Notes under the pieces: generated by a model
The model's input: the letters and a program-made list of their open reading frames with translations, nothing else
Databases searched by the model: none
Told to the model about the DNA's origin: nothing
In this document: positions 1,394 to 43,513 of the stretch, piece by piece
Numbering within the stretch: position 1 is the stretch's first letter
Layout of the letters: the number at the start of each line of letters is the position of its first letter
Translations under genes and position numbers: made by a program
Virus record (IMG/VR): IMGVR_UViG_3300012979_000031
Coordinates: 1-64,000 of that record
Length of the DNA: 64,000 nucleotides
Reading direction: 5' to 3' (one strand)
From: a virus
Taxonomy: Duplodnaviria; Caudoviricetes

Positions 1394-1564
1394 TTATGAA
1401 AAACAAGTATTATCGTTTTCTCCTAAAGTTTCTTCCTCCTCGTTTTCATTGGATTCACTATCCTCTGTAATAAATCTTAGAGGTCTTCCTTTAGGTAATT
1501 CATTCATTCTAAGCTCCCCTGTTAGGTTAAGAGTAGAATATCTTTTATCTCTTAATATAATCAT
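1394..1564 (-). CDS. 56-aa protein with shared leader (MIILRDKRYS...)
   Basis: Translated by hand, below the ORF-track cutoff; perfect leader motif; CCTTAAATATAG promoter-like motif at 1635-1624. Confidence 0.65.
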   Translation of the reverse strand: MIILRDKRYSTLNLTGELRMNELPKGRPLRFITEDSESNENEEEETLGENDNTCFS

Positions 1565-1694
1565 CTGTTCAATTATTAGAATAGTGTTTTAAAAGTAAGT
1601 TTATTTATGGTGTTTTACTCACTCTATATTTAAGGAATGATGAAAAAAAATAAAGAGACTAGCCTTTCTCAAACTAGTCCCCTTACAGGTTTTA

Positions 1695-2765
1695 TCAGAT
1701 AAGTTGTTGTAGTATAGTCTGACTAATAAGATCTATAGCACCGTTAACATCTCTCCAATCACATGTTTCATTCTGTGTGTGCATGCTTAGATTAGGAATA
1801 GATACTAGGCACGTTTCACAATCTTTCGAATTCAACTGGATAGCGTCTGTATTTGTTCCTCCACATCTTGCAACGCCTCTTTGGAACTCTATGTCAATTT
1901 TATTAGCAGTCTGGACAAGAAGATTACAAAGTCTCATACTCTTATCCTGACCATACTCGATAACAGGACCAGAGCCGAGCTTAATATCACCATACTTAAC
2001 CTTACTTACCAAACCGCCATTAGTAGCAAAAGTAACGTCAATGTCTATACTAATGTCTGGGTTAATGTTATGTGCTGCTACAGTTGCTCCTCGTAATCCA
2101 CTTTCTTCCTGAGTACAAGCAGCAAAATACACAACAACATCACTATCCTCATCAATCTTACCATTCAACTCTTCGGCAACCTTAGCAACTACGTAAACTC
2201 CAATCTTGTCATCTAGAGCGTTACCTACAATCTTATTATCACCAAACTTAGAGATAACATTACGCTCGAAGACAACAAGAGATCCGGGGTGAACATAAAA
2301 TCTATCCTCAACATCAGCCTTAGAGTCAGCACCAATATCTAAACGAAGCTGCTCTATCTTACAAGCACTATCCGCCTCCTTTCCTTTACCGTCAATATGA
2401 ATAGGAGCTTTATGTACAATTCCCTTTATCCACTCTCCTTTATCATTTCTTACTCTAAGTTGAGCCCCTGGGAGAACTTTTTTATCAACTCCCGCCAGAT
2501 TTTGAAGAACAATCATACCGTCATCCTCAATCAATCCGACCATCATAGCAATTTCGTCGATGTGAGCTGAAATAAGGATCTTCGTTTTACCCTTACCCTC
2601 TTTTCCCAGACGATAGGCCGAATTACCAATCTTGTCTGAGTAAGCTGGTTCAATGTGGGCAAGTTCTTTCATTTTCTTGTCCCAAACTTCAGTAGCTTTA
2701 ACCTCATAAGAACTAGGACTATAAGCCATAAGTAAGTCCTCTAAGAATTTTAAATCTCTTTCCAT
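1695..2765 (-). CDS. M42 family (M20/M25/M40 clan) metallo-aminopeptidase
   Basis: SAHIDEI, ALDDKIG, QEESGLRGA, IDIDVT, GGTNTD and SMHT motifs. Confidence 0.9.
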   Translation of the reverse strand: MERDLKFLEDLLMAYSPSSYEVKATEVWDKKMKELAHIEPAYSDKIGNSAYRLGKEGKGKTKILISAHIDEIAMMVGLIEDDGMIVLQNLAGVDKKVLPGAQLRVRNDKGEWIKGIVHKAPIHIDGKGKEADSACKIEQLRLDIGADSKADVEDRFYVHPGSLVVFERNVISKFGDNKIVGNALDDKIGVYVVAKVAEELNGKIDEDSDVVVYFAACTQEESGLRGATVAAHNINPDISIDIDVTFATNGGLVSKVKYGDIKLGSGPVIEYGQDKSMRLCNLLVQTANKIDIEFQRGVARCGGTNTDAIQLNSKDCETCLVSIPNLSMHTQNETCDWRDVNGAIDLISQTILQQLI

Positions 2766-2806
2766 ATTTTTTTTTATTTTTAATCACTTATAAGAATTTC
2801 GGAGGT

Positions 2807-3800: not shown

Positions 3801-5693
3801 ATGGAAAATTTTATAAATCATAAAGACCCTACGTTACCAATAGATACATCTTCTATAGAAATTAGAGATGCTTATGAAAAACTCAGTAATGATGAGAAGA
3901 TAATGGTAACTTGTAGGTTATTAGGAATGAATCATGTTCCGACTGACTTCAAGACTTTTTTATTTGATGACTACTTCTTAGGACAGGAAACAGGTTGTGG
4001 TAGTCGAATTTTTAAATATTGGTTAGATAAATTCCCTGAGATATTTCCAAATCAGATAACAACAAAAACACCTTACATATCTTTTACAGGGTGTATCGGT
4101 AGTGGAAAATCATTTATCTCTAAGATGATTGGACTTTATATGTATCACAGACTAGATTGTTGTAGTGATGTATATGCTTCTCTCGGTTTAGCAAAGTCAA
4201 GTAAAATAGCATTCGGTTTCTTTCATGCTTCTGCTGATACTGCCGAGAGAGACTTTGTTAGATCATATAAAGACGTCTTCGAATCTAGTCCTTATTTCAA
4301 AAACTTATACAATAATCCTCCTATTCGACTTATTGCATCAGGACCACAAAGTACAGGTTCGGTAATTGGTACGCAGCTTGTATTTTCTGTACTCTCTGAG
4401 GTTGGATTCTGGAAACCGGGGGATGCTATATCTAAGATTGGAGAGGTTCTTATACGTTATGAATCCCGTTTTAAAGATAAGAGACATCACTTTGGTATGG
4501 TTATTGCCGATTCTTCTGCTAAGGATTCTGATCATGGAGCTACACAAGAATTCGAAGATAGAGTACCTGCCGATGAACTCTTTAGAATATCACCCGCCCA
4601 TTGGGAAGTAAGACCTGAACTATATACGGAGTCTAAGGGAAAAACATTCGACTTCTTTATAGGTGATAGTAAACAACTCCCTAGAATGATTGAACCTGGA
4701 GAAGACCTGATTAAAGCTAATATAGATCTAGATAGAGTTATTCACGTCCCTGATGATAAACAAACTAGACTTAGATTCCAATCTGATCCGATCCGAAGTT
4801 TACAAGACCTGGCAGGAATTCCGTATAGTGGTAACTCTTTATTCTTTGGTGGAGATCTTAGTCATCTTCTTAAGTGTTCTAGTATTCGTAATTATGCACC
4901 AGAGGAAATTATTGTAGACTTTTATGATAAGACCGATAGTATATACTCTAAGGTTGAAACAATGCTTTATAGAGTCCCTAAACATACTAACCTATTTGTA
5001 CATTTCGATATTGGCCTAGTAAAAGATAAAACAGGGGTCTCTCTATGCTACTATAACGGAGAACAGGTAGATCCAAGCGGTGGAAAAGCTACATACCCTA
5101 AGTTTAAAGTTCCTCTGTGTTTTGTAGTAAGTAGAAAGAAAGGACAAGCAACTTCCTTAGACCACCTTTATCAATTCCTGAAAGACCTGATAAGCAATGG
5201 ATACTATGTTACTCTAAGTGCCGATTCCTTTTCTAGTGCAGGTATTTTCCAGAGTTGTGAGAGAGATGGAATTGAGTATAAGGCTATTTCAATTGATAAA
5301 ACGATGGATGCCGGTGTTGCTTTTAAAAATATAGTAAACACGGAGAGAATAGAACTACCTTATAATAATATTCTTCTTAGAGAGTGTAGTGAAATAAGGG
5401 TAGTAACTAATGGAAAAAATAATGAACATATAAAGCTAGACCACCCATTAACTTCAAGCTGTACAGAATTCGACTATACAGGACGTAGTGAAAAGAATCT
5501 ACCAGGTACTAAAGACTTATTTGATGCAGTCTGTGGTAGTGTATTTAGTTGTTTACGTAAGTATGGTGAATATATGGAAAATGGTGTTACGGGAGGTTTT
5601 GTGAAGAGTGTTAAAGCTCTAGGAACTATTACACAATCCGCTAGAGAACAAACACAGAAACAATTTCAACACATGATAGAAAATATATTCTAA
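3801..5693 (+). CDS. terL: terminase large subunit
   Basis: Walker A GCIGSGKS, Walker B VLSE, RNase H-like nuclease HFDIG...LDHP...KDLFDAV. Confidence 0.85.
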   Translation: MENFINHKDPTLPIDTSSIEIRDAYEKLSNDEKIMVTCRLLGMNHVPTDFKTFLFDDYFLGQETGCGSRIFKYWLDKFPEIFPNQITTKTPYISFTGCIGSGKSFISKMIGLYMYHRLDCCSDVYASLGLAKSSKIAFGFFHASADTAERDFVRSYKDVFESSPYFKNLYNNPPIRLIASGPQSTGSVIGTQLVFSVLSEVGFWKPGDAISKIGEVLIRYESRFKDKRHHFGMVIADSSAKDSDHGATQEFEDRVPADELFRISPAHWEVRPELYTESKGKTFDFFIGDSKQLPRMIEPGEDLIKANIDLDRVIHVPDDKQTRLRFQSDPIRSLQDLAGIPYSGNSLFFGGDLSHLLKCSSIRNYAPEEIIVDFYDKTDSIYSKVETMLYRVPKHTNLFVHFDIGLVKDKTGVSLCYYNGEQVDPSGGKATYPKFKVPLCFVVSRKKGQATSLDHLYQFLKDLISNGYYVTLSADSFSSAGIFQSCERDGIEYKAISIDKTMDAGVAFKNIVNTERIELPYNNILLRECSEIRVVTNGKNNEHIKLDHPLTSSCTEFDYTGRSEKNLPGTKDLFDAVCGSVFSCLRKYGEYMENGVTGGFVKSVKALGTITQSAREQTQKQFQHMIENIF

Positions 5694-6121
5694 TGGGAAG
5701 ATTTATATTGAAGAGAAAACTCTATAGTATGCCTTATGATCCGAAACCTAGAATTCAAGCTATAGAGGGTTGTCCTTTTGTAGATGAGGATTATGATACT
5801 GTAAACAATAGAAACATTAAGGTAGACGAGATTGCTATAACTAATCTATTCAAAAACCCAGTTAAGTATATTACCCCTGAAATCTATGAATATGAAAAAG
5901 AGTTTATTCAGAGTCAGGGTCTAGGTTTAAAAGATTATGAAGAGATTAGTTGTTGTAAGGTTGAAGTTAATGATACTAGAGATATTGAGTTCTGGGTTAA
6001 GCCTGTAGTGGGATCAAAGCTCTATAGAAAATACGGACCTACTTTTACTTGGCACCTAATAGGAAACCTTAGAGGAACTAGACCGCAAGTAGATGTCTTT
6101 GATGGATACGGAGAACTATAA
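5693..6121 (+). CDS. leader-bearing hypothetical protein (MGRFILKRKLYS)
   Basis: Translationally coupled to terL (TAATG); leader DNA identical to the one at 35511. Confidence 0.7.
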   Translation: MGRFILKRKLYSMPYDPKPRIQAIEGCPFVDEDYDTVNNRNIKVDEIAITNLFKNPVKYITPEIYEYEKEFIQSQGLGLKDYEEISCCKVEVNDTRDIEFWVKPVVGSKLYRKYGPTFTWHLIGNLRGTRPQVDVFDGYGEL

Positions 6122-6134: not shown

Positions 6135-6884
6135 ATGAAAGTAATCAGGTTAAAATACTTCAGTAAAAGAAAGAAAGAAGAAAAGGAAAACTATGTCCCC
6201 GGAATCGTTGGTGGAATAGGAGCTGCTGCTGGGATTGGTGGTACTATGGCAGGTGTAGAGAAGGTTGATAGAGAGAAAGGTATATCTAAACAACTGGACA
6301 CATTACTAGGTATCAAGAGAGATGATGAAACATTCTTGAATAAAATAAAAAGAAAATCATACGACGTTATCGGTGGTCCTAGGGTAGAAGATGAGGATGG
6401 TATTATTGGTTCTTTGAAAAATAAACTTAAGAGGAAATTCGCAGTAAAAGATCTTAGTACATTTAGAGGCTCTGATGAATTTATGAAACCTCTAGAACAA
6501 ACTATAAAGGAGTATGAAGATCAGGCTGAAGATTCTAAGAAAAGAGCTAAGAAAATTGAGAAGCAAGCTAAAAAGAATGCTGATAATGCTATAGGTCAGG
6601 CTGCTAAAAATAATGCTGACTACCTAAGAAATAATGCAGCTAATCTACTAGAGAGTGAAGAATATGTACAAGCTAAGGGAGAATTAGATAGATTAAAGAA
6701 GTTGCAGAGAAAAGGAAAGGTAGCTAGAGATTATACAGAAGCTATGAATTGGATGAGAAGTAACTGGAACAAAGGTGGTGTCTTAGGAAAAGCAAAAGTA
6801 GCTGCTATTCCGGTCAGTGCAGGAGCTGGAGTTGGTTACAGTATTCATAAACTAGCTAATAGAAAGAAAAACACAGAAAAGTGA
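6135..6884 (+). CDS. leader-bearing Gly-zipper/coiled-coil protein (MKVIRLKYFS)
   Basis: Two Gly-rich hydrophobic helices, WNKGGVLGKAKV module, basic tail. Confidence 0.7.
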   Translation: MKVIRLKYFSKRKKEEKENYVPGIVGGIGAAAGIGGTMAGVEKVDREKGISKQLDTLLGIKRDDETFLNKIKRKSYDVIGGPRVEDEDGIIGSLKNKLKRKFAVKDLSTFRGSDEFMKPLEQTIKEYEDQAEDSKKRAKKIEKQAKKNADNAIGQAAKNNADYLRNNAANLLESEEYVQAKGELDRLKKLQRKGKVARDYTEAMNWMRSNWNKGGVLGKAKVAAIPVSAGAGVGYSIHKLANRKKNTEK

Positions 6885-6885
6885 T

Positions 6886-8859: not shown

Positions 8860-8869
8860 AAAGTTTATA

Positions 8870-10234: not shown

Positions 10235-10780
10235 TTATTCTTTATTCTTTCTACCATCATATAACTTCTTGGCACCATACGTAGCTAGTAATCCCGCTCC
10301 CGCAACTGCACTACCCTTAAGTAATCCTCTACCAATACCCTTCTCTAGTACAAGATCTTTTCCAAGTACTTTCTCTCGATTACTTAAGTATCCTTTCTTT
10401 AATTCTTCTGTAGATTTCTTCAAAGTTTCTACTCCACTCTTGTTTTTCTCAATTAGGTTACGGATCTCTTGTGCATTATTCTCTCCTATACCCTTCAAAA
10501 TCTTATCCTTTCCTAATTTCTTCTCTAAAAACTCATACTCCTTCTTAGCTCTTTCTAGATTTTCTGTAGACTTATTGTAGGCTTGCTTGGATGATGTATA
10601 ACTCTCTCCACCCTTCTTATCTACATATTTCTCAAAAGACTTCTTACCTTGATTATAACCTACTCCAAGAGAACCTAATACTCCAGCACTCAAACCTAAA
10701 GCCTCTAATCCAGCTCTAGTATTACTCTTCTTGCCTTCCTCACTATTCTCTCCAAATACTTTTAATCTAAATTGTATCAT
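10235..10780 (-). CDS. leader-bearing Gly-zipper protein (MIQFRLKVFG)
   Basis: Two Gly-rich helices; YGAKKLYDGRKNKE tail. Confidence 0.7.
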   Translation of the reverse strand: MIQFRLKVFGENSEEGKKSNTRAGLEALGLSAGVLGSLGVGYNQGKKSFEKYVDKKGGESYTSSKQAYNKSTENLERAKKEYEFLEKKLGKDKILKGIGENNAQEIRNLIEKNKSGVETLKKSTEELKKGYLSNREKVLGKDLVLEKGIGRGLLKGSAVAGAGLLATYGAKKLYDGRKNKE

Positions 10781-30943: not shown

Positions 30944-31171
30944 ATGGCTAGATTTATTTTAAAACGTAAGATTTTCTTTGTTGGACTTGGAAACCTGGCC
31001 AACGCTGCTACAGGTATGAAAGGTGCTCAACAATTAACTTCTGCTGGAAAAGCCTGGGAAGCAACTAAAGGAATAACTAAGTTAGGCATTGCTGGAACTG
31101 CTGTAGCTGCTCCTATTATTGCTGCTAAAGGGGCGTATGATATTGCAACTGGAAAACCTTTAGAAAGTTAA
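30944..31171 (+). CDS. leader-bearing small hydrophobic protein (MARFILKRKIFF)
   Basis: Leader; LGIAGTAVAAP helix. Confidence 0.7.
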   Translation: MARFILKRKIFFVGLGNLANAATGMKGAQQLTSAGKAWEATKGITKLGIAGTAVAAPIIAAKGAYDIATGKPLES

Positions 31172-31175: not shown

Positions 31176-31754
31176 ATGATTATAGTAAGACAAAAACAAT
31201 TTGATGAAGAAGAAAGTAGTACTGGTTCTAAAATTTTAAAAGGAACACTAGGAGTTGCTGGAACTGTTGGTGCTTTCTACGGTGCTCGAAAAGGTATGCT
31301 AGGTAATACTATTCAGATGGGAGCTAATAAACTCTACGGACAAGCTGGTGTTCAGTTGCAAAGACTAGGTAATACAGTTGCAGGTGGCTGGAAAGGAGGC
31401 GGTAATTTCCTTGCTAAACGTGGAAATAATATGGTAGAGTCTGCTTCTAAGGAATACGGAATCGCTAATGCACAGAAAAATTTAATCCAAGAGGGTATGA
31501 GCAAGGATCAAGTAGTCGGAGCAATTAATAAAGGTAAATCACAACTCAGAAATGATCTCTACAAAGATTATGGTGGTAGAAGTGGATTTAGAACACAACA
31601 GAATAATATAGACTATAAAAATATGTACGACTCCCAGAAAGCAATTAAGAAACCTGTAACCCCTACTCCTGTAACTAGTGGTGATTCTATAACTACAGCT
31701 AATAACCACGTACCTACAGTTGATCAATTAAAAGGTGGTTTAAGACTAGCATAA
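31176..31754 (+). CDS. leader-bearing Gly-rich protein (MIIVRQKQFD)
   Basis: Leader; GTLGVAGTVGAFYG. Confidence 0.7.
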   Translation: MIIVRQKQFDEEESSTGSKILKGTLGVAGTVGAFYGARKGMLGNTIQMGANKLYGQAGVQLQRLGNTVAGGWKGGGNFLAKRGNNMVESASKEYGIANAQKNLIQEGMSKDQVVGAINKGKSQLRNDLYKDYGGRSGFRTQQNNIDYKNMYDSQKAIKKPVTPTPVTSGDSITTANNHVPTVDQLKGGLRLA

Positions 31755-31765: not shown

Positions 31766-32839
31766 ATGAAAGAGTTTATATATAGAGGTCTAGTATTAAG
31801 TACTAACTGTAAATACTTTAATGTAGTGAAAGGCATTAGTGATTCAGTTGTTGAAGATAATACGACGTCTACATTAACTTTATCATTTACAGAAGGTAGT
31901 ACAACAGACTCATTTTCGGAATTAACAGGTACACCTAAGATTGGAAAGTCACAGGAACTGGAACCTCTCGGAGTACCAATGAAACTTTCTGATCAAATAT
32001 TAACACTGAATGGCCTGAAGTTAAGAAAAAAGACTATAGATTCTCATGTGATTAATATAGTAATAGTTAGTGATTGTGAGTCTAGAGTAAGTCAAGATTA
32101 CTGGCATACAACTATAGTAGTTTCAAAGAATGATGCTAATAATCCAGAATTCGCCCAATACTTATTCTATTCTGGAAACTTAAAATTCTTACAACCAGTC
32201 GGACCTATGCCAGATTGTTGGGAGATTAGAAACTTTCCAAAGATAATAATAGGAGATACTAGCTTAACATTAACATCAACCAGTACAGAGGTTTTTCAGC
32301 TTAGAAGGACTTATGATGATTATGTAATACGAGCCATAGACTATCAAGAACAAGCTATATCAGAGTTTAGAAGAATACTTGATGGATATGGATTAGAGCT
32401 AGTAAGACAAAATAAAGAAACTACATTGAAAAAGACATCTTATGTAGTTTATCAGTTCTCTCAAACCCCAACTAAGATCAATCACCCATATTACGATGAA
32501 GTTGGTAGAAGAGTTATTTCACACAAGCTACCAGTCAACTTTTCATTACATACTACAGATATGGTTATGTTCTTTGATTTTAAAAATAAGTATACAAACC
32601 TAGATCTATTAACTAATTTCTGTGAGTATAAGACCTATGATAAGTATGGGAAAAGATGGACTGCTGCTATAAAATGGGGAGGAATCACAGAGGACTTTAA
32701 TCATCAATACCAATCAGATGATAATTCTAATTTTGCATTTCAGTGTCAGTTTATGTGTGAAATACATTTTTATGAAGTATTTGATGATAGATATGATGTG
32801 TTGAGAGAAATAGAACAATCGATTGAAGCAGAAGGATGA
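31766..32839 (+). CDS. virion structural protein, possibly neck or tail terminator
   Basis: Position between capsid and sheath; beta-rich C-terminus; no decisive motif. Confidence 0.4.
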   Translation: MKEFIYRGLVLSTNCKYFNVVKGISDSVVEDNTTSTLTLSFTEGSTTDSFSELTGTPKIGKSQELEPLGVPMKLSDQILTLNGLKLRKKTIDSHVINIVIVSDCESRVSQDYWHTTIVVSKNDANNPEFAQYLFYSGNLKFLQPVGPMPDCWEIRNFPKIIIGDTSLTLTSTSTEVFQLRRTYDDYVIRAIDYQEQAISEFRRILDGYGLELVRQNKETTLKKTSYVVYQFSQTPTKINHPYYDEVGRRVISHKLPVNFSLHTTDMVMFFDFKNKYTNLDLLTNFCEYKTYDKYGKRWTAAIKWGGITEDFNHQYQSDDNSNFAFQCQFMCEIHFYEVFDDRYDVLREIEQSIEAEG

Positions 32840-33207
32840 TTTCATTTAGACAGAAGAAAACTTTGATACAAAATATGATGCCAAAGGCGATGGAGTATCT
32901 AGAGGGAGAAAATATTCCATTTAACCGTATTAAGAAGGAGGATGCAGATAGAGTATCTTCTGTAAATAGTAAGGCAATGGTTCTTGTATCATTTATTAAG
33001 AACGAACATGGAAATTATGAAATCCAAGTTCAAGATAAGAAGCTTTATAGTTACACAGTCAAGTTGCTCAAGGAAATCTTTAGAATGAATATTAAAGAAG
33101 TAGATGAGAAGAATAGAACTATAACTGCAGAATGTAACTATGAAGGAATTATACTAGATATTATAGATATACTAGGAAGAAAATATAATCTATCACTAGT
33201 TTGTTAA
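32836..33207 (+). CDS. leader-bearing protein (MISFRQKK)
   Basis: Partial leader; coupled start. Confidence 0.65.
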   Translation: MISFRQKKTLIQNMMPKAMEYLEGENIPFNRIKKEDADRVSSVNSKAMVLVSFIKNEHGNYEIQVQDKKLYSYTVKLLKEIFRMNIKEVDEKNRTITAECNYEGIILDIIDILGRKYNLSLVC

Positions 33208-33212: not shown

Positions 33213-33890
33213 ATGATACAGTTTAGACAAAAAGAGTATACGGAACATGACGTTATGAGATTACTCTACGTCGAGCTTAAGAAAGATGGATTCTGGAGAG
33301 ATCGAGTAAAGGTAATTAATAGAAGTTCAATAATTCCGGTACTCAGAGGAAATAATATTTTAATAGAGCGCTTTGTTATATCTACTAATTTATTTAGTAA
33401 AGATAAATATAGATTATATATCAAGATTGGAGCACAAGCAAAATTACCTGATGAAGTTAGATTACCAGAGATTATACGACAAAGAAAAGTTCTAAATACA
33501 AAACTAAATTTTAGAGCTGCTGGTGGACCTTTCTTTCAGAATGAATTTAGCGAAACTGAAGAGGACATATTGTTACGTGAAAAGTTGTTTGGAAATAATA
33601 AGAAGAATAAAGGCGGAAATAACAACAATAATAACAACGGTAACAATAATAATAATAGTCAGGCTGCATCTCCTTCTGTATATGCTGAGGTTTCAAATAC
33701 TACACCTGGTGCTGATATTGAGTATGATATCAGATATCTCCTAGGTGAAGCCGTAAAGTATGATAAAAAAGACAGATCTTTGGTTCTTGAGTTTGACGGT
33801 CCTAAAGAGGATGCTATCAGAAGTATTAAAGAAGCTCTAAATATTCTCCCTTTCGGATTAGAATATAACATTTATTTACTAGATGTATGA
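33213..33890 (+). CDS. leader-bearing protein (MIQFRQKEYT) with poly-Asn linker
   Basis: Start reassigned to the leader ATG; internal KLFG. Confidence 0.65.
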   Translation: MIQFRQKEYTEHDVMRLLYVELKKDGFWRDRVKVINRSSIIPVLRGNNILIERFVISTNLFSKDKYRLYIKIGAQAKLPDEVRLPEIIRQRKVLNTKLNFRAAGGPFFQNEFSETEEDILLREKLFGNNKKNKGGNNNNNNNGNNNNNSQAASPSVYAEVSNTTPGADIEYDIRYLLGEAVKYDKKDRSLVLEFDGPKEDAIRSIKEALNILPFGLEYNIYLLDV

Positions 33891-34126
33891 TGTTGACTTT
33901 AAAAAGAACTCTTCAAAATCCTATCAAGAAGAAACCGACTACTATGAATACTGGCGGAGGAATTGTTGGATTTAATAAAACTAGAAACTATGACCAGGAT
34001 TTTAATAGACTGGGGAAATTAGAGACTACACGCCAATTAAGTCAAGTAGGAGAGTTGCAGAAGGAAATGAAGAAGTTAAGTACGGAATTAAATGAGGGAA
34101 GAAGAGGAAAATGGCTAGATACATAA
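33887..34126 (+). CDS. small basic protein
   Basis: 79 aa, coupled; weak leader MMLTLKR. Confidence 0.55.
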   Translation: MMLTLKRTLQNPIKKKPTTMNTGGGIVGFNKTRNYDQDFNRLGKLETTRQLSQVGELQKEMKKLSTELNEGRRGKWLDT

Positions 34127-34425
34127 TAAAAAGAAAATTAAAGCAGTTTGGTGTTATATCAGAAACTGGTGCGGGACTTGTTAATGGACTGGGAGCTGGT
34201 GTAGAGACTGCGGGTGATGCTGTAAAAAGTAAAGCTGGACAAACTGCTGGTGGTATAGCTTCTGCAATGAATTTTGGAAGTGCTGTAGGTGGAATGTTAG
34301 GCGGAGGACCTTTAGGAATGTTAGCTGGTTATGCTGGTACTTATTTAGCAGGTAGAGCAGCAGCTAATGCAGTAGGAAGTGGTCTACAATCTATGGGTCA
34401 GAGCATGCAAAATGTTCAGGGTTAA
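34111..34425 (+). CDS. leader-bearing Gly-zipper protein (MARYIIKRKLKQFG)
   Basis: Extremely Gly/Ala-rich. Confidence 0.7.
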   Translation: MARYIIKRKLKQFGVISETGAGLVNGLGAGVETAGDAVKSKAGQTAGGIASAMNFGSAVGGMLGGGPLGMLAGYAGTYLAGRAAANAVGSGLQSMGQSMQNVQG

Positions 34426-34430: not shown

Positions 34431-35513
34431 ATGATAAAATTTAGAGAAAAGATATTTTTTGTTCAAGGATTAATGGCAGTAGGCTCAATAGCATCTCTTC
34501 CTATGATGGCAATGCAGATGTCTCAAGGTTCTGAACAAGCTGAAATGGCAGAAAAACAAAATGCCGAAAACATAAAAGCCATGAACTCTCAAACAGCAGC
34601 CATTAACCGTCTTGCTAAAGCTAATCCAGGAATGGGAACTCAGGTAGGACAGATTAAGGCAGGTAGATTCAGTGATACTAAGGAGGTAGGTAGAAGAAAA
34701 TTATTTGCTGCCGCTGGAGGAATGGGAGTATTATCTAAGTCATGGCAAACTGCTAAAAATCTATGGAAAGAGAACCCAAAGATAGCAGAACAGGTTAAGA
34801 TGGGTGTTGGTATTGGTGCAACACTAGGAGCTGGAAAGTATATTGTCGGAAAGATGATCTCTAATGATGCTAAGAATAGTGGAATTGACTTGAACGCTGC
34901 TACACAAATGAATAAGGATATGCAACAAAAGGCTTATTCAGCAGAAGTAGTTAATCAAGTAGCACAACAGGGAGCCGAGAATACAACACAAAAGACCGCT
35001 GGTAATTTTCTAGGTAAGGCTAAGAAATTTGCTGGAGGACAGTTACTTAATGTTGGTTTTGCCGGATTTGAAGGAGTTAGTAATTGGGGAACTTGGAAAG
35101 CTGAGAAAGAAGCATTACAAGGTATGACTAGACAGACTAATTCATTTCAGAGACAGAAGGCTTACTCTATACTACAGAAAGAGTTTGGCGTAGGAACATT
35201 CTTTGCCAGAGCTGCTAAAAAGACTACTAATGGACTTGGTAGTTTCTTAGGTGTAGGTAACTCAAAGACAATGGCAAATGTAGGTAAGAAGTTGAGTAAG
35301 ACTGCTGGAGAAAATAATATTCAGAAAACTGTTGGAGATTTCATGACTAACCATAAGTATGCATCTACAGCCCTAGGTGTTGGAGCTGGTATTGGTGTTG
35401 CTTTTCCATTAGGTGAGAAGATTGGTAGTACGGCTGTTGAAGTTCCTACTAAAGCCATGGATAAGAGTGCATATGATTGGGAAAATTATCAAAATTCAAA
35501 AGTACAGTCGTAA
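34431..35513 (+). CDS. leader-bearing multi-module protein (MIKFREKIFF)
   Basis: Internal KLFA, KAYS x2 and KEFG sites separating Gly-rich helices. Confidence 0.7.
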   Translation: MIKFREKIFFVQGLMAVGSIASLPMMAMQMSQGSEQAEMAEKQNAENIKAMNSQTAAINRLAKANPGMGTQVGQIKAGRFSDTKEVGRRKLFAAAGGMGVLSKSWQTAKNLWKENPKIAEQVKMGVGIGATLGAGKYIVGKMISNDAKNSGIDLNAATQMNKDMQQKAYSAEVVNQVAQQGAENTTQKTAGNFLGKAKKFAGGQLLNVGFAGFEGVSNWGTWKAEKEALQGMTRQTNSFQRQKAYSILQKEFGVGTFFARAAKKTTNGLGSFLGVGNSKTMANVGKKLSKTAGENNIQKTVGDFMTNHKYASTALGVGAGIGVAFPLGEKIGSTAVEVPTKAMDKSAYDWENYQNSKVQS

Positions 35514-35944
35514 TGGGAAGATTTATATTGAAGAGAAAACTTTATACTGTTTATGATGAGACTGATTCACTAAAGAGAATGAAGGACTCAGATATACTAG
35601 CACAACAGAAAAAGGAAGCCCCCGGTCTAGGTAATGTAGCTCAATCGGCAATTACTGGAGCGGTAGCAGGTGCAGGAGCTCTGGGAGTAGCTGGAACTAT
35701 CAAGAATACAGTCAACGGTGGAGGTTTCAAAGGTGCATGGAAAGGATTTAAAGGTGGAGCTGGAACAGGTGCAATCTTAGGTGGACTAGGAGCTGGAGCT
35801 TACGCAATGTACAAGAGAAGTAAACAGGTTGAGGATAATAGTTTCTACAATAAAAGACTTGATTATGCAAAGAAACAAGCTTTACGTAGAGAGAAGATTG
35901 ATTGGAAAAATAATATGACCCAGCGTGATGGGTATTCTTATTAA
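35513..35944 (+). CDS. leader-bearing Gly-zipper protein (MGRFILKRKLYT)
   Basis: Start reassigned to the TAATG-coupled ATG. Confidence 0.7.
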   Translation: MGRFILKRKLYTVYDETDSLKRMKDSDILAQQKKEAPGLGNVAQSAITGAVAGAGALGVAGTIKNTVNGGGFKGAWKGFKGGAGTGAILGGLGAGAYAMYKRSKQVEDNSFYNKRLDYAKKQALRREKIDWKNNMTQRDGYSY

Positions 35945-35952: not shown

Positions 35953-36684
35953 ATGGTTAAATTTAGATTAAAGAACTTTTCTATTCAGGATGGCGGATAT
36001 AAAGGCGGAAAGTATCAACCAGTAAAAGCTAACTATGCTAAAGGTGCAGGTTTAGGAGCTAGTGTTGGTGCCATTGCAGGAGTTTTGAGTGGAATGAACA
36101 AAGGAAATACAGTTGGAGGAGCAGCTCTTGGTTTAGCGGCTGGAGCAGGTATTGGAGCATTTATATCATGGATGAGAGAGAAGTGTGATCAGTCAATTTT
36201 TAATAGAGGAGAGGCTATTAGTGCTAACTCTTTCACCTTAATGCAGATACTTGAGGATAACTATACAAACTATGATCCAGATAATGAGGAGATTAATGTA
36301 TCAAGAACTCAGACAGATGATCAAGGAAATACTGTAACTGTAGCAAAGAAAACTACTAGATCAAATAAAACAGGTGTTGTAGCTAAAGGTAGTTTGTATA
36401 CAGTAAACCAAGATCCGAATAAATGTACAATATCTGCTTACTATAGTGCGGGAGTTCTAGTACTTTATGTTAATCGTCCGAAGAATCATGAGCTTAGTTT
36501 CTTGAATAAAATATTAGATAAGTATTGCTATAGCTACAAGAATGCGGATTATACAGCAACACAAATTAGAAATAATGTATATGAAGTAGAGGTAGCTATT
36601 GTGGCTGGAACTGAAACTGATATTTGTGAACAGCTAGTTGATTCTGGTTTCTGTTTGAACATTATGACTACTAATAAATTCTAA
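35953..36684 (+). CDS. leader + Gly-zipper 2TM + globular domain (MVKFRLKNFS)
   Basis: Likely paralog of 36973 and 41904. Confidence 0.7.
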   Translation: MVKFRLKNFSIQDGGYKGGKYQPVKANYAKGAGLGASVGAIAGVLSGMNKGNTVGGAALGLAAGAGIGAFISWMREKCDQSIFNRGEAISANSFTLMQILEDNYTNYDPDNEEINVSRTQTDDQGNTVTVAKKTTRSNKTGVVAKGSLYTVNQDPNKCTISAYYSAGVLVLYVNRPKNHELSFLNKILDKYCYSYKNADYTATQIRNNVYEVEVAIVAGTETDICEQLVDSGFCLNIMTTNKF

Positions 36685-36687: not shown

Positions 36688-36972
36688 ATGTTAATACTTA
36701 GACAAAGAAGTTTCGGAAGGAAAGAACAGATTGGAAAATTCTTGAAAGAGTCTCCAGTGATGCCAGCTACTGCATTAGGTCTAAGTGCTACTAGTGTTTA
36801 TTTATCAGCTACTCGAAACAAACAGCTAAAAGAACAGAATCAGAAACAACTTGAAGCTTTGAAAGACTTGACTAGATCACTAAATAAAGTTGACAGAACA
36901 ATATCTAGTGCTAGCAATGATAACCTAGAAGAAGCTGCTAAAAATAAGAAACGTAAATATTCTATATTTTAA
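36688..36972 (+). CDS. leader-bearing small protein (MLILRQRSFG)
   Basis: Leader, hydrophobic helix, coiled coil. Confidence 0.7.
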   Translation: MLILRQRSFGRKEQIGKFLKESPVMPATALGLSATSVYLSATRNKQLKEQNQKQLEALKDLTRSLNKVDRTISSASNDNLEEAAKNKKRKYSIF

Positions 36973-37617
36973 ATGATAAAGTTTAGACAAAAAGATTTCG
37001 GATTTACTGATTCTGCTATTAGTGGTAGTGTAGCAGGTTGGCACTTAGGAGGTGCTGTAGGTGGATTAACTAGACTAGATGCTCCTGCAAAGTTGTTAGG
37101 AATGTCTAAAGGCCTAGAAGGTTATGGACCCGGACAGAGGATGCTTGCGGGAGCTATTACTGGTGCTGTCATTGGTGCATCTCTTGGAATTCTTGCAGAG
37201 GGGATCAAGAAAATCTCTACTAATATAAACAGAAGAAATACAGTAGATAATAGACTGTTAAAAGTTGTTGTTGAAAATCTTCAGAAACAAGGATTCAAAG
37301 AAGGAGAAAAGTTCACAAGAGATCCAAAAACAGCTAGTGAGTTAAGAATAAAGATCTGTATTTCTGTAGCTAGAGTTAATGGTGATCTTAGGCTTCTTGT
37401 AAATACTATTAAGGATCCTAAGTTGAAAGATTTATCTGAAACTATGATATCTCGTCTACCTAATTCTAGTGTAGTGAGACAGGACATGAAAGATAAGTTT
37501 AATGAGATATCAATCACTTCTATTTCAGATTCTTCAGCGGATTCTGGATTAATTACTGGAATTGCTGAGTACTTTATAAGAAATGGTTATCCAGTATACT
37601 TAGTAGAAGTGGGTTAA
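36973..37617 (+). CDS. leader + Gly-zipper 2TM + globular domain (MIKFRQKDFG)
   Basis: GAITGAVIGASLG. Confidence 0.7.
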   Translation: MIKFRQKDFGFTDSAISGSVAGWHLGGAVGGLTRLDAPAKLLGMSKGLEGYGPGQRMLAGAITGAVIGASLGILAEGIKKISTNINRRNTVDNRLLKVVVENLQKQGFKEGEKFTRDPKTASELRIKICISVARVNGDLRLLVNTIKDPKLKDLSETMISRLPNSSVVRQDMKDKFNEISITSISDSSADSGLITGIAEYFIRNGYPVYLVEVG

Positions 37618-37645: not shown

Positions 37646-39991
37646 ATGGCACAATGGAATGAAACTCTTGAGCCTTATATTAAAGTTCAGGAGGAAGTTA
37701 AAACCGCTACTCTAAATCCAACTACAGGTGAGGATTTAATTGTTGGATGTGTTATTTTCGCAGATGCAGGTCCTTCCGTTCCTACACTAATTAGAGGTCA
37801 GAAGGAGTTTAAGTCAGTTTTTGCATCACAAGAAATTACTGAAGATTATATAAACAGCCTGAATAAACTATATGATTGCGGTGAGAAGGGAGATAAAACA
37901 CTTCCAAGTACACTCTGGACTAATGCTTACCGCCTGGCTGGATCTAATACATTACTAGTTGTTCGTGCTGGTAAAAGTAAAGGAGTTAATTTTGTAAAGT
38001 CGGTAGAGAAGAATGATTTTAGTACATATCTTCTTAAGGACGGTGCAGTATTGAAGAAAGTAGAACCATTTAAGATTGTTGTAGATTTCGATGGAGACTC
38101 AGCTGCTCATTCTACAGATGGTTGGTCAGTTAATATTGAAGGTGTAGGTATCATTGGTAATAGAGTAACAGATAATGGTTCTCAATATGATATTCCTGCT
38201 AATAACCTTCCAGAACTAGTAAAGATTCTTAATGAAACTTCTGTATTCTTCTCTCCATCATACAAGTTCTATTCAGATGTTGAAGCTACAGATGCTAATG
38301 AGGTTCCAGCAAGTTCTAGTGAGATTCGTTCTGTAAAATTTGATGAAGTATATCTTGCTAATACTATTCTAGATACAACAGATGAAAGATGCCCTAACGG
38401 AACTTGTTATCTTGTATTCTGTGAGCCTGATTTCAATGAGCCAGATCAGCAAGTTATTAATGAGTTCTTACAAAATAAATCAGGTTTACTAGATGCGAAT
38501 ACAATAGCTAATTTCGATGCCCCAGAGTTTTATGCAATCAATAATTATAATACTGCTTCAGAACTTAGAGTTAGAATTCGTAGATTTAATCATGATGCAG
38601 TAAATACTAATAACATTGGTACATTAACTCAGCTTACTTCTACAGGTCCTTCAGCAGTTGTTCCAGTGAAGGAGGTTCTAGATACATTTACTAAGGGAGG
38701 TACATCAGAGGTTAGTGATTCAGTTAAGAAAAGAGATTTCTTCGAAGTAGCTATCTATGACCCTTCTATATCTAGTGAGGTATTATTCTTCAACATTGGT
38801 AACATTAGCGGTCGTGGAGATGTAACAGTTGATGAGTTTAATAGCCAGATGAGCATGATTGGATTCAACTTACCTAAGGATCTTCATGACTTGGATCTAA
38901 ACTACTCTGGATATGATGCGGATGAGGCTACTTGGGAACTTCTTGTTGATGGACTACCTGCAGGAAAACAAGCTAGTTTCGTTAAGTCAAGCTTTGAGGA
39001 ACTAAATAAGGTAGATAAGACTACTTGGATTGTTGGCGAGACTATTGCTTACGTTGATGGAAATTACTACCTATACGTAACTAATGGTGAGGATCAGATT
39101 TACTGTGACCTTAAGATTGATCCAACAGTTTATAAGATTCTAATGGCTAATGATACTGATCTATTGAATGCTGTTGATCTACTAGAGGAGGATGAGGTTT
39201 ATGTTACAGAAGGTTTGTCAGATCTTGGAAATACTAACGCTTCATTCCAATCTTATGCAGCAAACTTAGCAATCAATGGAAACTACTTCTACCCTATTAG
39301 TACTGTAAACTCTACTAACTACATGACTATTGGCAACTCTATTTCTAAGATTAGCCAGAACTCTTACAAACTATATGCATCTTCTCCTTGGGATCTTGAC
39401 ACTAGTACTCTTGGATGGCCTTGTTACATTTCTCCTAGTGTTCTTTATTGGGAGGCTGTATCAAGAAATCGTAGAAATAATGAAGAGTTCCGTGGAGTTC
39501 TTGGTCAGCAGGGTGGTTTAGTTCAGTATCAGTCTCCTGTAGTTGAGTTTAATAAGAAGACTAGACAGCTACTATTAACAAAGAAAGTAAATACAGCTAC
39601 ATGGGATATTCAGACAAGCAGCTGGATAATGAATGATAACTATACTAAGCAGTCTGAAAATACAATTCTTAGTGATGATGGAAATTCAAGACTACATCTA
39701 AGAATCTCAAAATCTATTCCAGTAATTCTAAAGCAGTTTATTGGAAGAAAGATTACAGATAAGTTGTGTGATGATATTGAGTATACTATCAAATACTTCT
39801 TCCAGACTACAATTCAAAGTTACTCATATACTGTAGATGATTATCAAGTATTCTGTGACTATGATGAAGCTTTGGCACGTCAGAATAAAGTAAAGGTAGT
39901 TATTAATGTAAGATATCATAGAACAGCTAAGTATATCAATGTAATTAACAGAGCATTCGATGTTGGTATGAGTATCGATTCTGCAGAGTAA
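37646..39991 (+). CDS. tail sheath protein
   Basis: EPYIKVQE..GPS.PTLI N-terminus; C-terminal NSRL..I...F.G...L...I...V.V.I......YINV. Confidence 0.8.
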   Translation: MAQWNETLEPYIKVQEEVKTATLNPTTGEDLIVGCVIFADAGPSVPTLIRGQKEFKSVFASQEITEDYINSLNKLYDCGEKGDKTLPSTLWTNAYRLAGSNTLLVVRAGKSKGVNFVKSVEKNDFSTYLLKDGAVLKKVEPFKIVVDFDGDSAAHSTDGWSVNIEGVGIIGNRVTDNGSQYDIPANNLPELVKILNETSVFFSPSYKFYSDVEATDANEVPASSSEIRSVKFDEVYLANTILDTTDERCPNGTCYLVFCEPDFNEPDQQVINEFLQNKSGLLDANTIANFDAPEFYAINNYNTASELRVRIRRFNHDAVNTNNIGTLTQLTSTGPSAVVPVKEVLDTFTKGGTSEVSDSVKKRDFFEVAIYDPSISSEVLFFNIGNISGRGDVTVDEFNSQMSMIGFNLPKDLHDLDLNYSGYDADEATWELLVDGLPAGKQASFVKSSFEELNKVDKTTWIVGETIAYVDGNYYLYVTNGEDQIYCDLKIDPTVYKILMANDTDLLNAVDLLEEDEVYVTEGLSDLGNTNASFQSYAANLAINGNYFYPISTVNSTNYMTIGNSISKISQNSYKLYASSPWDLDTSTLGWPCYISPSVLYWEAVSRNRRNNEEFRGVLGQQGGLVQYQSPVVEFNKKTRQLLLTKKVNTATWDIQTSSWIMNDNYTKQSENTILSDDGNSRLHLRISKSIPVILKQFIGRKITDKLCDDIEYTIKYFFQTTIQSYSYTVDDYQVFCDYDEALARQNKVKVVINVRYHRTAKYINVINRAFDVGMSIDSAE

Positions 39992-40049: not shown

Positions 40050-40781
40050 ATGGAGAAAACATTATTAACTGACCTTAAGAAAAAAATATTTATAAGATCT
40101 GCCTTAATAGCTGTAGGTTCGCTAGATGAGATACTAGGGATGAATGATTACTTGTCGGCTGATGAAATCTTACTAGAAATTATAAAAGAAGCTTTAAGAG
40201 AATTTGAAGAGACTAATCCACTAATTCTTGAGATGAAACTAAACAAGGAACAGATGTCAACTTGTTATGGTATGGAAGGATTCTATGAGATTAAGTCAAA
40301 CTTCACTTTATTCCTAGACTGTATGATTTCAGAGGATCAGATAGTACTTGTCCCTAATAGTATGCCAATGTGGAGAAACCTAGGCTCTTATCCAGTAGCA
40401 GGTGGTTATAGTTATTTCTCAGAGTATAGAAGACCTTACATATTCTTAGGTGATCTACCCTCGAATGATCAATTTTATCTGAGAGGAATATGTAGTAGAC
40501 CTATTATTCCAGATTTTTTACCGGACAAAACTTTCAACCCAGAGAGCAATAAAGCAGCAATATACTGGATGAATATTGAAGAAGGTGCTAGAGCTAATTA
40601 TTTCCTAGATCTATGTTTATGCCACTTACTTGATTATATTCGCCAGCTTAAATCTAGTGTACAATTACCAGGAATGTCTATAGATGTTTTTGGTAACGTA
40701 GATTCTGCTTATCAAGAACTTAGAGCTAGAGCTGATCAGGAAAGATTACAATCGGGTTGGTATGGAGATTTATTAATATGA
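40050..40781 (+). CDS. neck/head-tail adaptor-like protein
   Basis: C-terminal VQLPG..ID......YQEL..R resembles T4 gp13; position in the structural module. Confidence 0.5.
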   Translation: MEKTLLTDLKKKIFIRSALIAVGSLDEILGMNDYLSADEILLEIIKEALREFEETNPLILEMKLNKEQMSTCYGMEGFYEIKSNFTLFLDCMISEDQIVLVPNSMPMWRNLGSYPVAGGYSYFSEYRRPYIFLGDLPSNDQFYLRGICSRPIIPDFLPDKTFNPESNKAAIYWMNIEEGARANYFLDLCLCHLLDYIRQLKSSVQLPGMSIDVFGNVDSAYQELRARADQERLQSGWYGDLLI

Positions 40782-41196
40782 TAATACAATACTGAGGCAA
40801 AAACAATATATATCTCTCCCCTCTTTTTCTTTCCCTAAGCCAAATTTAGTAAGTAATATAGGAGAGTCTGTATCAAGTAACATTTACGCTATGAGACAGA
40901 ATGTAGCAGATGCGGCACTTGGAAGAACAGGCTTAAGACTTAAATTAAAACCGACTCAAGTTCAAGCAGCAGAAAGTATGTTAGTTAATAATACAGGACA
41001 AGCAGCGTTAAATGCAGGTGAAAAATTTGCTTATAAACTTGGAGGAGATTCTTTACAAAATACCTATAATAATACAATTAAACCTATGGCTAATAGTACT
41101 GGGTTGAATAATGTTAGTATAAGAGGTGTAGGAAACTCTATGATTGGTATTGGAGGTTCGAGTGGAGATGAAATGATAGGAAACTTTTTAATGTAG
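40778..41196 (+). pseudogene. leader-bearing gene (MIILRQKQY) disrupted by a 5-bp AATAC duplication
   Basis: ATG ATA ATA CAA TAC TGA; removing one AATAC gives MIILRQKQYISL... in frame with ORF 40891..41196. Confidence 0.7.
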
Positions 41197-41311: not shown

Positions 41312-41896
41312 ATGATTATATTAAGAAATAAGATGTTTGTCAGCCTAGATAATATATGGAATGATAAAAAAGCACCAAAAAGGACTTTTATCAATAAACT
41401 AAAGCTGACTGCAAAGAATGGACTGAATAACTTAGGGGTAGCGAAAAAGAAAATTTTTAATCCGACCAAGCCCCTAACCCTAGAAGATAAAAGAGGAATT
41501 ATAAAGGAAACTAATTCAAGTCTAGACTATATAAAGAATCTTGGAACTAAACCTACAGAAACTCTTGCAAAATCTGGAGCTAGTATTGTAAAAGAAACTT
41601 TAGAGTCTCCTATTCAAAATTCTATAACAAAAGGAGTAGGATCCATTGGCGTTATAACTACTGGAAATCCTTTAGCTTATAGTCCAGGAGCAGAAACTGT
41701 AGTAAAAGAGACAATAAACGGAGTTCCAGTACTAAAGAAAACAATAGGAGCTGTAGATAATGTGGTAGGTTCTAAGAAATTGGCTAGTAAGATAAATCCA
41801 GAGGCAATAGGTAAAGCTGCTTCTGTTGTTGATAATACTGCTAAAACTGGAATAAAAGGTGGACTTAATTTAGTAAAGAGAATTTTTAAACGATAA
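41312..41896 (+). CDS. leader-bearing basic protein (MIILRNKMFV)
   Basis: Own promoter motif CTTATTTATG at 41281. Confidence 0.7.
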   Translation: MIILRNKMFVSLDNIWNDKKAPKRTFINKLKLTAKNGLNNLGVAKKKIFNPTKPLTLEDKRGIIKETNSSLDYIKNLGTKPTETLAKSGASIVKETLESPIQNSITKGVGSIGVITTGNPLAYSPGAETVVKETINGVPVLKKTIGAVDNVVGSKKLASKINPEAIGKAASVVDNTAKTGIKGGLNLVKRIFKR

Positions 41897-41903
41897 GAAG
41901 TAC

Positions 41904-43175
41904 ATGGGAAAGAGTTATAGAATAAAAAGAAAAAATTTTACAATACCTGAAGGACATTTTACAGGACAGAAAGATATGGAAGAAATACCTAGTCTGTTAA
42001 GTAATGTAGGAAAAGGAGTTATGTATGGATCAGGTATTGGTGCAGGTGTTGGAGCTATAGTCGGACACTTTAATAATGATTCTACTACACTAGGCGGAGC
42101 TATAGATGGCAGTATACAGGGAGCTAAAGTTGGTCTTGCCTCCGGTGTTATGTTAAAGTTCTTCCAAAATTATATGCACAAGCCAATGAAATCTATAAAG
42201 TTCCAAGAAGTAGATCGAGGAATTCGTAGACAGTTTGGTATGTATAGAGTTTCTGGATTATCGGTAGGAGATTCTATTGATAACCGAATGACTATGGATG
42301 AAAAATTTAGCTTCAATGATAGAAATGTAGCTGACTATAAGATTAATATTGCTATTCAAAATGACAGTGTTACTATGTATACTTTCGGAATGGATAATAA
42401 AGAGCTTGACTTGTGTTCTAGTATTCTTGATTTCTATGCACAAAAGTATTTCGGAGTTAACTATAGTTCTAAGCTAATAAATAAAACAGTTAATTCTTAC
42501 AGTATAGATATTACTTTTACAAACTATAATGTAATTACTAACTTTATCATGGAACTTTCTCAGAGATTGCAGACTAAGATTAACTTGATGAATGAGAAAG
42601 CTATTATTCCAGGGAGACTTAGTGATGCAGCGTCTAGTATAGGAGGAGACCAGAAAAATTTTAGTATACCCGAGCTATCAAAAAGTGATGTAGCCAAGAT
42701 ACTCGGGAAAACAGGACAACATATAATAAGTGAGTCTAAGGGTGGCTGCGGATGGAGAAAACTAGGAACTGCTGCATTTATAGGTCTGATTTCTAATACA
42801 CTAGAGAAGATAACTAGCATAGAATCAGCGAAGTACGGATTAAAAAAGCCTAGAAGTGAATATGGTAACTCATTCCTTGGAAAAGAGCTAAAGAAACTAC
42901 ATTACGTCGAGAATACATCATATACAGTTGGAGATGTTGAGGCTTCTGATAATATTGCACTAGTTAATGGAAGATTTATAGTTACTACATACACTGGAAG
43001 CGAGAATCAGAAGAAAATAGATGAATGTTTCTATAATCCATATCAAATGAAAATTAATAAGAGTAACACAGGAGGAGCTACAGTCTATTCTTATGTTATA
43101 GATTCTATTAGCGAATTCGAACTCTTGATTAATAAGCTATTCTCAACTAAAATAAAATTTAACGTATTTATATGA
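41904..43175 (+). CDS. leader + Gly-zipper 2TM + globular domains (MGKSYRIKRKNFT)
   Basis: Internal KNFS splits two modules; NFTIPEGHF resembles NFSIQDGGY of 35953. Confidence 0.7.
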   Translation: MGKSYRIKRKNFTIPEGHFTGQKDMEEIPSLLSNVGKGVMYGSGIGAGVGAIVGHFNNDSTTLGGAIDGSIQGAKVGLASGVMLKFFQNYMHKPMKSIKFQEVDRGIRRQFGMYRVSGLSVGDSIDNRMTMDEKFSFNDRNVADYKINIAIQNDSVTMYTFGMDNKELDLCSSILDFYAQKYFGVNYSSKLINKTVNSYSIDITFTNYNVITNFIMELSQRLQTKINLMNEKAIIPGRLSDAASSIGGDQKNFSIPELSKSDVAKILGKTGQHIISESKGGCGWRKLGTAAFIGLISNTLEKITSIESAKYGLKKPRSEYGNSFLGKELKKLHYVENTSYTVGDVEASDNIALVNGRFIVTTYTGSENQKKIDECFYNPYQMKINKSNTGGATVYSYVIDSISEFELLINKLFSTKIKFNVFI

Positions 43176-43513
43176 TTATTCTTAGAAATAATAAAAATAA
43201 TAGTCCATTTGAGAAGAAACTTGAAGGACAGAAAATTCTAGATTATGAAATATCTGAAGAAATTCCAAAAAATAATATAAGTGTAACCAAAGACTTAGGG
43301 AATTTCAAAGTATTTTTTCCAATCGATTATGAATTTGACCAATATGAAATTTCAGATACTATCAGATTGTCTCAGCCTGATGTAAGGACGAATGCAGAGC
43401 AAGAGTATGATATTATTACTCTATCTACTAATAAGCCAATCAAAGAGACTACATTCTTTAAAGTTCTGAAAAAGATTATTGAAATTGAAGGATTTGTTAC
43501 AATAATTGAATAA
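43172..43513 (+). CDS. protein with partial leader (MIILRNNK)
   Basis: Coupled start. Confidence 0.6.
   Translation: MIILRNNKNNSPFEKKLEGQKILDYEISEEIPKNNISVTKDLGNFKVFFPIDYEFDQYEISDTIRLSQPDVRTNAEQEYDIITLSTNKPIKETTFFKVLKKIIEIEGFVTIIE

Follow-up and report, generated by a model that had tools for sequence, protein, structure and literature searches.

The window analyzed here is the first 64 kilobases (kb; 64,000 nucleotides) of the IMG/VR viral record IMGVR_UViG_3300012979_000031, a contig of 94.8 kb that CheckV rates as 25% complete. Roughly two dozen small, mostly unrelated proteins encoded in it begin with a leader of 9-11 residues that ends in [KR]-x-[FY]↓[SAGT] (the arrow marks the predicted cut), and the same motif recurs within the phage head proteins. 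We describe the leader genes, the head module and its candidate protease, and weigh the proposal that the leader acts like the capsid-targeting sequence (CTS) of the T4 internal proteins.

Leader genes along the window

The leader comes in two forms, which we defined by strict patterns: type A, M-I-x-[LF]-R-x-K-x-[FY], and type B, M-[AG]-x-[FY]-x-L-K-R-K-x-[FY]. Across the 94.8-kb contig, 19 of the 86 predicted gene starts fit one of these patterns, as against only one of 414 internal methionines. A check run in which residues 2-15 were shuffled gave a mean of 0.5 matches, with a maximum of 4 over 2000 trials, confirming that the leader is commoner than chance. A six-frame scan of 2761 ATGs returned 26 matches, 20 of which are listed gene starts and about six of which lie elsewhere. 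An initial annotation, made from the sequence alone, had counted about 25 leader genes; the 21 type A and type B starts that it listed all read as written, and the leaders themselves are real, but the number was too generous, as 20 are intact and complete (the 19 above and a short one at 26240), two are frameshifted and four are degenerate.

On the left of the window, type A leaders open the genes at 1394..1564 (minus strand; MIILRDKRY↓S, 56 amino acids (aa)), 6135..6884 (plus strand; MKVIRLKYF↓S, 249 aa), 10235..10780 (minus; MIQFRLKVF↓G, 181 aa), 14922..15134 (minus; MIILRLKTF↓R, 70 aa) and 17276..18046 (minus; MIILRQNIY↓S, 256 aa). Type B leaders are found there at 5693..6121 (MGRFILKRKLY↓S, 142 aa) and 18856..19281 (MTTYILKRKVF↓A, 141 aa), both on the plus strand, as are all the leader genes that follow. 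The type A gene at 23505..23891 (MIIFRPKLF↓A) encodes 128 aa with an isoelectric point (pI) of 12. Further right, type A leaders begin the genes at 31176..31754 (MIIVRQKQF↓D, 192 aa, with three internal sites), 33213..33890 (MIQFRQKEY↓T, 225 aa, with an internal site whose P1 residue, 126, falls in a variable disordered linker), 34431..35513 (MIKFREKIF↓F, 360 aa, with five internal sites between Gly/Ala-rich stretches), 35953..36684 (MVKFRLKNF↓S, 243 aa), 36688..36972 (MLILRQRSF↓G, 94 aa), 36973..37617 (MIKFRQKDF↓G, 214 aa) and 41312..41896 (MIILRNKMF↓V, 194 aa). Interspersed with them are the type B genes at 30944..31171 (MARFILKRKIF↓F, 75 aa), 34111..34425 (MARYIIKRKLKQF↓G, 104 aa), 35513..35944 (MGRFILKRKLY↓T, 143 aa) and 41904..43175 (MGKSYRIKRKNF↓T, 423 aa, with four internal sites including QKNF↓S at P1 253).

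The initial annotation had grouped five further starts as partial leaders. The one at 26240 is a proper short leader, MKQRRKLF↓S, while the other four keep the N-terminal half and have no Phe or Tyr at the end: 19278..19787 (MIIKRKKVT, 169 aa), 32836..33207 (MISFRQKKT, 123 aa), 33887..34126 (MMLTLKRTL, 79 aa) and 43172..43513 (MIILRNNKNN, 113 aa), all on the plus strand. Most orthologues of the 33887 protein have ..KRF↓S or ..NKQY↓S at this place. Two more leader genes are interrupted. At 19784..20567 (MIIRLKRF↓S), the open reading frame (ORF) starting at 19784 ends after 14 codons at a run of ten C residues (19814-19823), and the frame that follows is open into 19986-20567; contigs of two sequencing runs (X1 and X6) have nine C residues there, one fewer at 19814, and join the leader in frame with 19986-20567 in a single gene of 261 codons. 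The C10 tract reflects either an error of assembly or a sequence that is prone to slippage and possibly phase-variable. At 40778..41196, a leader-like ..ILRQKQY↓I lies in frame with the ORF ending at 41196, and the ATG at 40778 is offset from that frame by one base; the repaired leader proposed earlier for this gene is a guess.

What is conserved in these leaders is the peptide. Among 49 distinct type A leaders, taken from the window and seven related loci, Ile 2 is present in 44 and Leu or Phe 4 in 39 (otherwise Ile, Tyr or Val). Codons at conserved positions vary freely: Phe 9 is encoded by TTC 18 times and by TTT 18 times, Ile 2 by ATA 24 times and by ATT 19 times, Ser 10 by TCT, AGT or TCA, and Leu 4 by CTA, CTT or TTA. 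Substitutions are conservative (F/Y, L/F, K/R), and no conserved DNA was seen upstream of the leader genes. Because of this synonymous variation, the conservative exchanges and the lack of upstream conservation, the codon data indicate that selection targets the leader peptide and not the DNA.

The bodies behind the leaders resemble little else. Pfam and PHROGs gave no family assignment above threshold for 20 leader proteins, with only faint Gly-zipper and T7_gp14 hints, and a fold search with the conserved leader protein 33213 found no match (Foldseek E>0.3; the best VIA Z, 5.8, reflects a generic alpha/beta arrangement only). No pair of bodies in the window is linked by blastp at E<1e-3, in keeping with the view that they are mostly unrelated, although 35953, 36688 and 36973 turn out to be distant paralogues by family-wide linkage. 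Many have a basic pI (9-10) and contain apolar runs rich in Gly and Ala. Since further [KR]-x-[FY] sites lie in variable, disordered linkers of 33213, 34431, 41904 and 31176, these four proteins may be cut into pieces. As had been noted, the leader is absent from tail, lysis and metabolic genes: none was found in the tail-type genes of 43.5-94.8 kb, in the endolysin, M42 peptidase, AAA+ and VWA genes or in the sheath gene.

The predicted cut-site motif and the candidate prohead protease

Inside proteins, the motif [RK]-x-[FY][SAG] is concentrated in the head module. Between 21.4 and 30.9 kb it occurs 34 times where 5.2 occurrences are expected, and between 30.9 and 43.6 kb 17 times against 6.9; the flanking regions are close to expectation (12 observed and 14.5 expected at 1-20.5 kb; 26 and 28.3 at 43.5-95 kb). 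The head genes, all on the plus strand, bear these sites as follows. The portal candidate (21426..23174, 582 aa), named by position only and without a match in a sequence search against solved portal structures, has KMF↓G, GY↓S and KLF↓S within its first 54 residues. A 275-aa protein (24039..24866) has seven predicted sites and is probably cut into peptides. It should be noted that a segment of this gene (24542-24732) is hypervariable, with contigs of two runs holding 109-138 other bases in place of about 150-190. The Zn-ribbon protein (26240..27076, 278 aa) has a second site after its short leader, at residue 19, and five others.

The gene order is protease, scaffold, capsid protein. The scaffold-like protein (27109..29277, 722 aa) is very acidic, with 28% Asp+Glu and 5% Lys+Arg, and carries 13 [KR]-x-[FY]↓[SA] sites, REFSE and RLFSE among them. 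Its orthologues have 12-17 sites each despite a Lys+Arg content of only 5-7%, and an Arg or Lys stands two residues ahead of most of their Phe/Tyr-Ser pairs. The major capsid protein (29321..30823, 500 aa) has the sites KMF↓S (P1 42) and KTF↓S (P1 73), both invariant in seven orthologues, with KTF↓S directly preceding the conserved body. A site just before the conserved body is where T4-type capsid proteins mature. As a negative control, the portal and scaffold of Cobetia phage Carin-5, the nearest cultured relative by capsid protein, have no such sites despite the shared gene order.

The predicted prohead protease (25008..26240, plus strand, 410 aa) comprises a gp21-like domain (about residues 1-183), a site-bearing linker and a helical C-terminal domain. 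Neither Pfam nor PHROGs gave a match, nor did a sequence search against solved structures. An AlphaFold model made from six orthologues (pLDDT 65) has T4 gp21 (5jbl) as its top three Foldseek matches, with probability 1.0 and a TM of 0.63 on the target; later matches are unrelated helical bundles, fitting the C-terminal domain. The invariant His50 (GSLTHR) falls on His85 of gp21 and Ser136 (PGVSA) on the gp21 motif PGVSS in a weak hhalign alignment (E 0.003), and we take His85 and Ser140 of gp21 to be catalytic, following the work on 5jbl. The model suggests, then, that the protease has the fold of T4 gp21. Its specificity appears to differ: by motif statistics the enriched site in the head proteins is [KR]-x-[FY] and not the Glu-type [LIV]-x-E, which points to a protease that cuts after Phe or Tyr instead of Glu.

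The linker contains four conserved sites (P1 at 189, 212, 240 and 262), two of them in segments that the model leaves disordered, as would be expected for self-release; a comparable self-removal of the C-terminal part is known for gp245 of SPN3US (PMC10052503). More than 200 relatives of the protease exist, and even in distant ones (E 1e-29 to 1e-48) K-x-[FY]↓S is retained immediately behind the protease domain. A complex prediction of the protease domain (1-190) with the leader and N-domain of the 33213 family (1-95) scored 0.02 and weighs neither way.

Two observations on related protease genes are worth recording. In a subclade of 335-400 kb (L024:10001-11615; also L027, L038 and L070), the gene is broken up into 2-4 ORFs that are in different frames and about 200 bases apart, and a 482-aa ORF lies just upstream; a search for group I introns there found no Rfam intron family, only a nearby tRNA (8302-8374). 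In addition, the helical C-terminal domain (about 260-410) recurs, without the rest of the protease, in many proteins that are 250-730 aa long and have different N-terminal parts (P0204, P0215, P0243 and others), and may be a shared docking module of the head core.

Relatives and genome setting

The phage is an uncultured jumbo phage of cattle and sheep guts. Its head genes are found in 17 public runs from at least 12 studies, labeled as bovine, sheep, rumen or plain gut metagenomes, and the exact capsid-protein sequence of the window recurs on a 326-kb contig. Relatives lie on contigs of 330-400 kb, with capsid proteins 63-70% identical and proteases 42-77% identical, and one of them is complete, at 353 kb with terminal repeats. 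The tail sheath gene (37646..39991, plus strand), which has no leader and is given for context only, identifies the phage as a myovirus.

The complete relative has the leader on 24 of its 502 genes, of which 23 lie on one strand within 251.6-293.8 kb, that is, in 42 kb around the head genes. Internal sites are enriched there only in the 260-280 kb bin (40 observed, 11.6 expected). Over the related loci, the leader is present on 221 of 812 distinct proteins near head genes, compared with 40 of 4108 internal methionines, and its carriers form about 61 BLAST families; types A and B are both found within one body family. The predicted cut-site motif is the same in all 71 related loci and in the distant protease relatives. 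In a distant phage (L103:3390-6561), about eight small genes behind a related protease gene begin with MKIFSTEKL[LF], MKVYSTEKLF, MRVFSTKTLY or MNKLFS..., which by sequence is a different tag on the same K-x-[FY] theme.

Several neighboring genes of the window deserve mention in their own right. An M42-family aminopeptidase (1695-2765, minus strand; Pfam E 2e-62), an unusual gene for a phage, sits among the leader genes and might trim or degrade released peptides. An adjacent minus-strand pair (6928-10090), a MoxR/CbbQ-like AAA+ ATPase (8870-10090) and a CobT-type VWA-domain protein (6928-8883), looks like a chaperone-type pair. A two-gene module is present in two copies, at 11844-14857 of the window (plus strand) and 63889-66773 of the contig (minus strand), each consisting of a protein of about 660-676 aa and then a T5orf172/MUG113-type (GIY-YIG-like) protein; their N-termini are alike (MIYLIKSVGRD.. 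and MVYLIESEGRN..). A weak formate/nitrite transporter (FNT) match at 569-1210 (minus strand; 27 bits) falls under the Pfam cut-off, and the initial annotation placed a second FNT-like gene at 61699-62391.

The proposed propeptide and address, and comparison with known systems

Taken together, the motif data lead us to regard the leader as probably a propeptide that is cleaved at a protease site. We also favor, with somewhat less assurance, the fuller reading in which the leader contains an address as well and so resembles the T4 CTS in both respects. The case for a CTS-type architecture arises from the combination of a peptide signal on many unrelated proteins, its confinement to the head region, the motif that it has in common with the scaffold, the N-terminus of the capsid protein and the linker of the protease, and a protease with a predicted gp21 fold. 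To this extent the CTS-like interpretation of the initial annotation holds up. Its description of the system as an independent equivalent is doubtful: fold and aligned His and Ser link the protease to gp21, and divergence from a T4-type system, with a change in specificity, is the likelier origin.

Cleavage at the motif, entry of the leader proteins into the head, the address function and ejection are all inferred from the sequence. The end of the leader (a basic P3, Phe or Tyr at P1, then a small residue) would be what the prohead protease encoded by the phage recognizes. Leader-bearing proteins would join the very acidic, multi-site scaffold in the prohead core; once activated, the protease would trim them, and they would stay in the head with the DNA. 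Since many carriers are basic with Gly/Ala-rich apolar stretches, it is plausible that they are ejected at infection. The address would probably be the N-terminal half (Met, Ile 2, Leu/Phe 4, Arg 5), with Lys 7 and Phe/Tyr 9 as the processing part, a division like that in T4. There, residues 4 and 7 of the CTS serve targeting and residues 8 and 10 processing, and Asp at position 10 stops cutting but not targeting (PMC9026906).

The main competitor would keep the cleavage and do away with the address. The leader would then be a minimal propeptide with an extended protease site (P6-P1), the bodies themselves would direct entry into the head, and removal of the leader might only activate or release the protein or make a new Ser, Gly or Ala N-terminus. 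We consider this unlikely. It gains from internal linkers that sometimes bear the full core [LF]-R-[QE]-K-x-F-G, from short forms such as MKIKRF↓S and MKQRRKLF↓S, and from the distant clade, where M-K-I-F↓S comes straight after the methionine. However, the leader logo is informative at P9-P4 (Met, Ile, x, Leu/Phe, Arg/Lys, Gln/Arg), and this extra conservation is missing from 702 internal site contexts. In the family of 32836, moreover, the N-terminal half is kept even where the aromatic P1 is lost (MIxF[RK]x[KR] in 16 distinct N-termini, position 9 being aromatic in some only), and a separate route into the head would be required for each of about 60 unrelated body families.

Processing by the host has a precedent in Staphylococcus phage 80alpha, whose capsid and scaffold are processed by Prp, the cysteine protease that recognizes the L27 motif MLxx(D/N)LQ(F/L)F'A(S/H)KK (PMC9405229). 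The leader would in that case mimic the N-terminal extension of L27 and be cut after Phe by host Prp, with which it agrees in having nine residues, Phe at P1 and a small P1'. We reject this as very improbable, as only the length and the P1 Phe agree: P3 is Lys/Arg and not Gln, P2 is variable and not Phe/Leu, and P1' is mostly Ser. Further, 80alpha is without a protease of the kind that this phage has, with a gp21 fold and the same sites in its linker, and no Prp gene (PF04327) was found in five clade genomes. The idea of a membrane signal, with the basic leader as the positive start of a signal-anchor or signal peptide to the host membrane, fares no better. A hydrophobic stretch directly follows the leader in 23505, 30944 and 34431, and many bodies are Gly/Ala-rich and apolar, but most leaders continue into polar or acidic sequence (for example in 1564, 10780, 31176, 33213 and 41312) and no lipobox Cys is present, which rejects a Sec or lipoprotein signal; it would also leave the same motif in scaffold, capsid protein and protease unexplained, so that there is very little chance of it being right. 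Least probable of all is a nucleic-acid element, in which the shared 5' coding DNA would be a translation-initiation element, promoter or recombination box and the peptide a by-product. The leader codons are AT-rich and most of the genes have a weak Shine-Dalgarno sequence or none, yet the synonymous and six-fold codon variation at conserved residues, together with the conservative exchanges described above, shows selection on the peptide; the motif also recurs inside proteins and the upstream DNA is not conserved. We therefore exclude a DNA or RNA element.

Several points weigh against a cleaved leader with an address of T4 type. Some internal sites copy the full leader core, as FRQKEFG does in linkers of 33213 orthologues, and the P6-P1 pattern may therefore belong to a longer protease site and not to an address. 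Leaders as short as MKIKRF↓S occur, and the conserved tag of the distant clade is a different one (MKIFSTEKL[LF]), so that the N-terminal half is not shared by all. Neck proteins would be expected between the capsid and sheath genes, and several leader genes are found there. The protease has no match to Pfam Peptidase_S77 (PF03420), at E<=0.1 for the protein and E<=10 for the clade genomes; its model is of moderate confidence only, and the position and specificity of cleavage are predictions from motif statistics. Finally, megablast and tblastn found no cultured relative among GenBank phages other than Cobetia phage Carin-5, through a 24%-identical capsid protein.

A bolder extension of the CTS-like reading, which we put forward tentatively and hold to be less likely than the reading itself, concerns the whole clade of 330-400-kb phages from ruminant and other guts and its distant relatives. 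Here a head protease of gp21 fold would have been re-tuned from Glu to a basic-P3/aromatic-P1 specificity, and each head would be loaded, by means of a two-part tag, with more than 20 interchangeable proteins destined for the host. The tag would combine the clip site with a hydrophobic, basic address whose binding partner is either the hyper-acidic scaffold or the protease's own C-terminal domain, and many of the loaded proteins would be membrane-active Gly-zipper proteins. The carriers are candidates for ejected host-takeover, anti-defense or channel proteins. More generally, the leader could allow the packaged proteome to be predicted by a simple rule from sequence in hundreds of uncultured jumbo phages of the gut, and could act as an independent loading tag for engineered capsids.

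The T4 CTS is the closest parallel. In both systems an N-terminal peptide of about ten residues is found on unrelated, often basic and fast-evolving proteins (PMC9026906, PMC3012670) and ends in a site for the phage's own head protease (predicted here) in which P3 and P1 are spaced alike. Scaffold, protease and the N-terminus of the capsid protein contain this site as well, the protease has a gp21 fold, and there are slight signs of distinct halves for address and processing. In T4, the core protein gp22 is co-purified with the internal proteins (PMC9026906). The differences are chemical and numerical: the site is [KR]-x-[FY]↓[SAGT] here and [LIV]-x-E↓ in T4, the leader is basic and hydrophobic where that of T4 is acidic, and there are about 20-25 carriers per genome, with about 60 body families in the clade, compared with a handful in T4. 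By sequence the phage is not T4-like, as the Gp23 and Peptidase_S77 profiles had no match.

Other jumbo myoviruses share further features. In phiKZ (gp175), SPN3US (gp245) and 201phi2-1, a gp21-related protease has a self-removed C-terminal part, and many head and ejection proteins are cut at a short motif, long propeptides at several places (PMC10052503), as we predict here. Those proteases cut after Glu, however, and their propeptides, of 20-254 residues, have no shared tag; in SPN3US only 9 substrates were found, with 42 head proteins uncut (PMC10052503). The L27 and 80alpha substrates of Prp likewise have a nine-residue N-terminal extension with Phe followed by a small residue, but the motif is another one, and a host cysteine protease acting on two phage substrates stands against a predicted serine-type, gp21-fold protease of the phage. 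Our literature search found no paper describing such a tag system. What would be new is the predicted basic-P3/aromatic-P1 specificity of a gp21-fold protease, the pairing of a basic tag with a hyper-acidic scaffold, and the 20-25 carriers per genome. If true, gp21-type proteases can change their P1 specificity, and the leader would be a second, chemically different natural version of the CTS, whose comparison with that of T4 would separate the address from the clip site.

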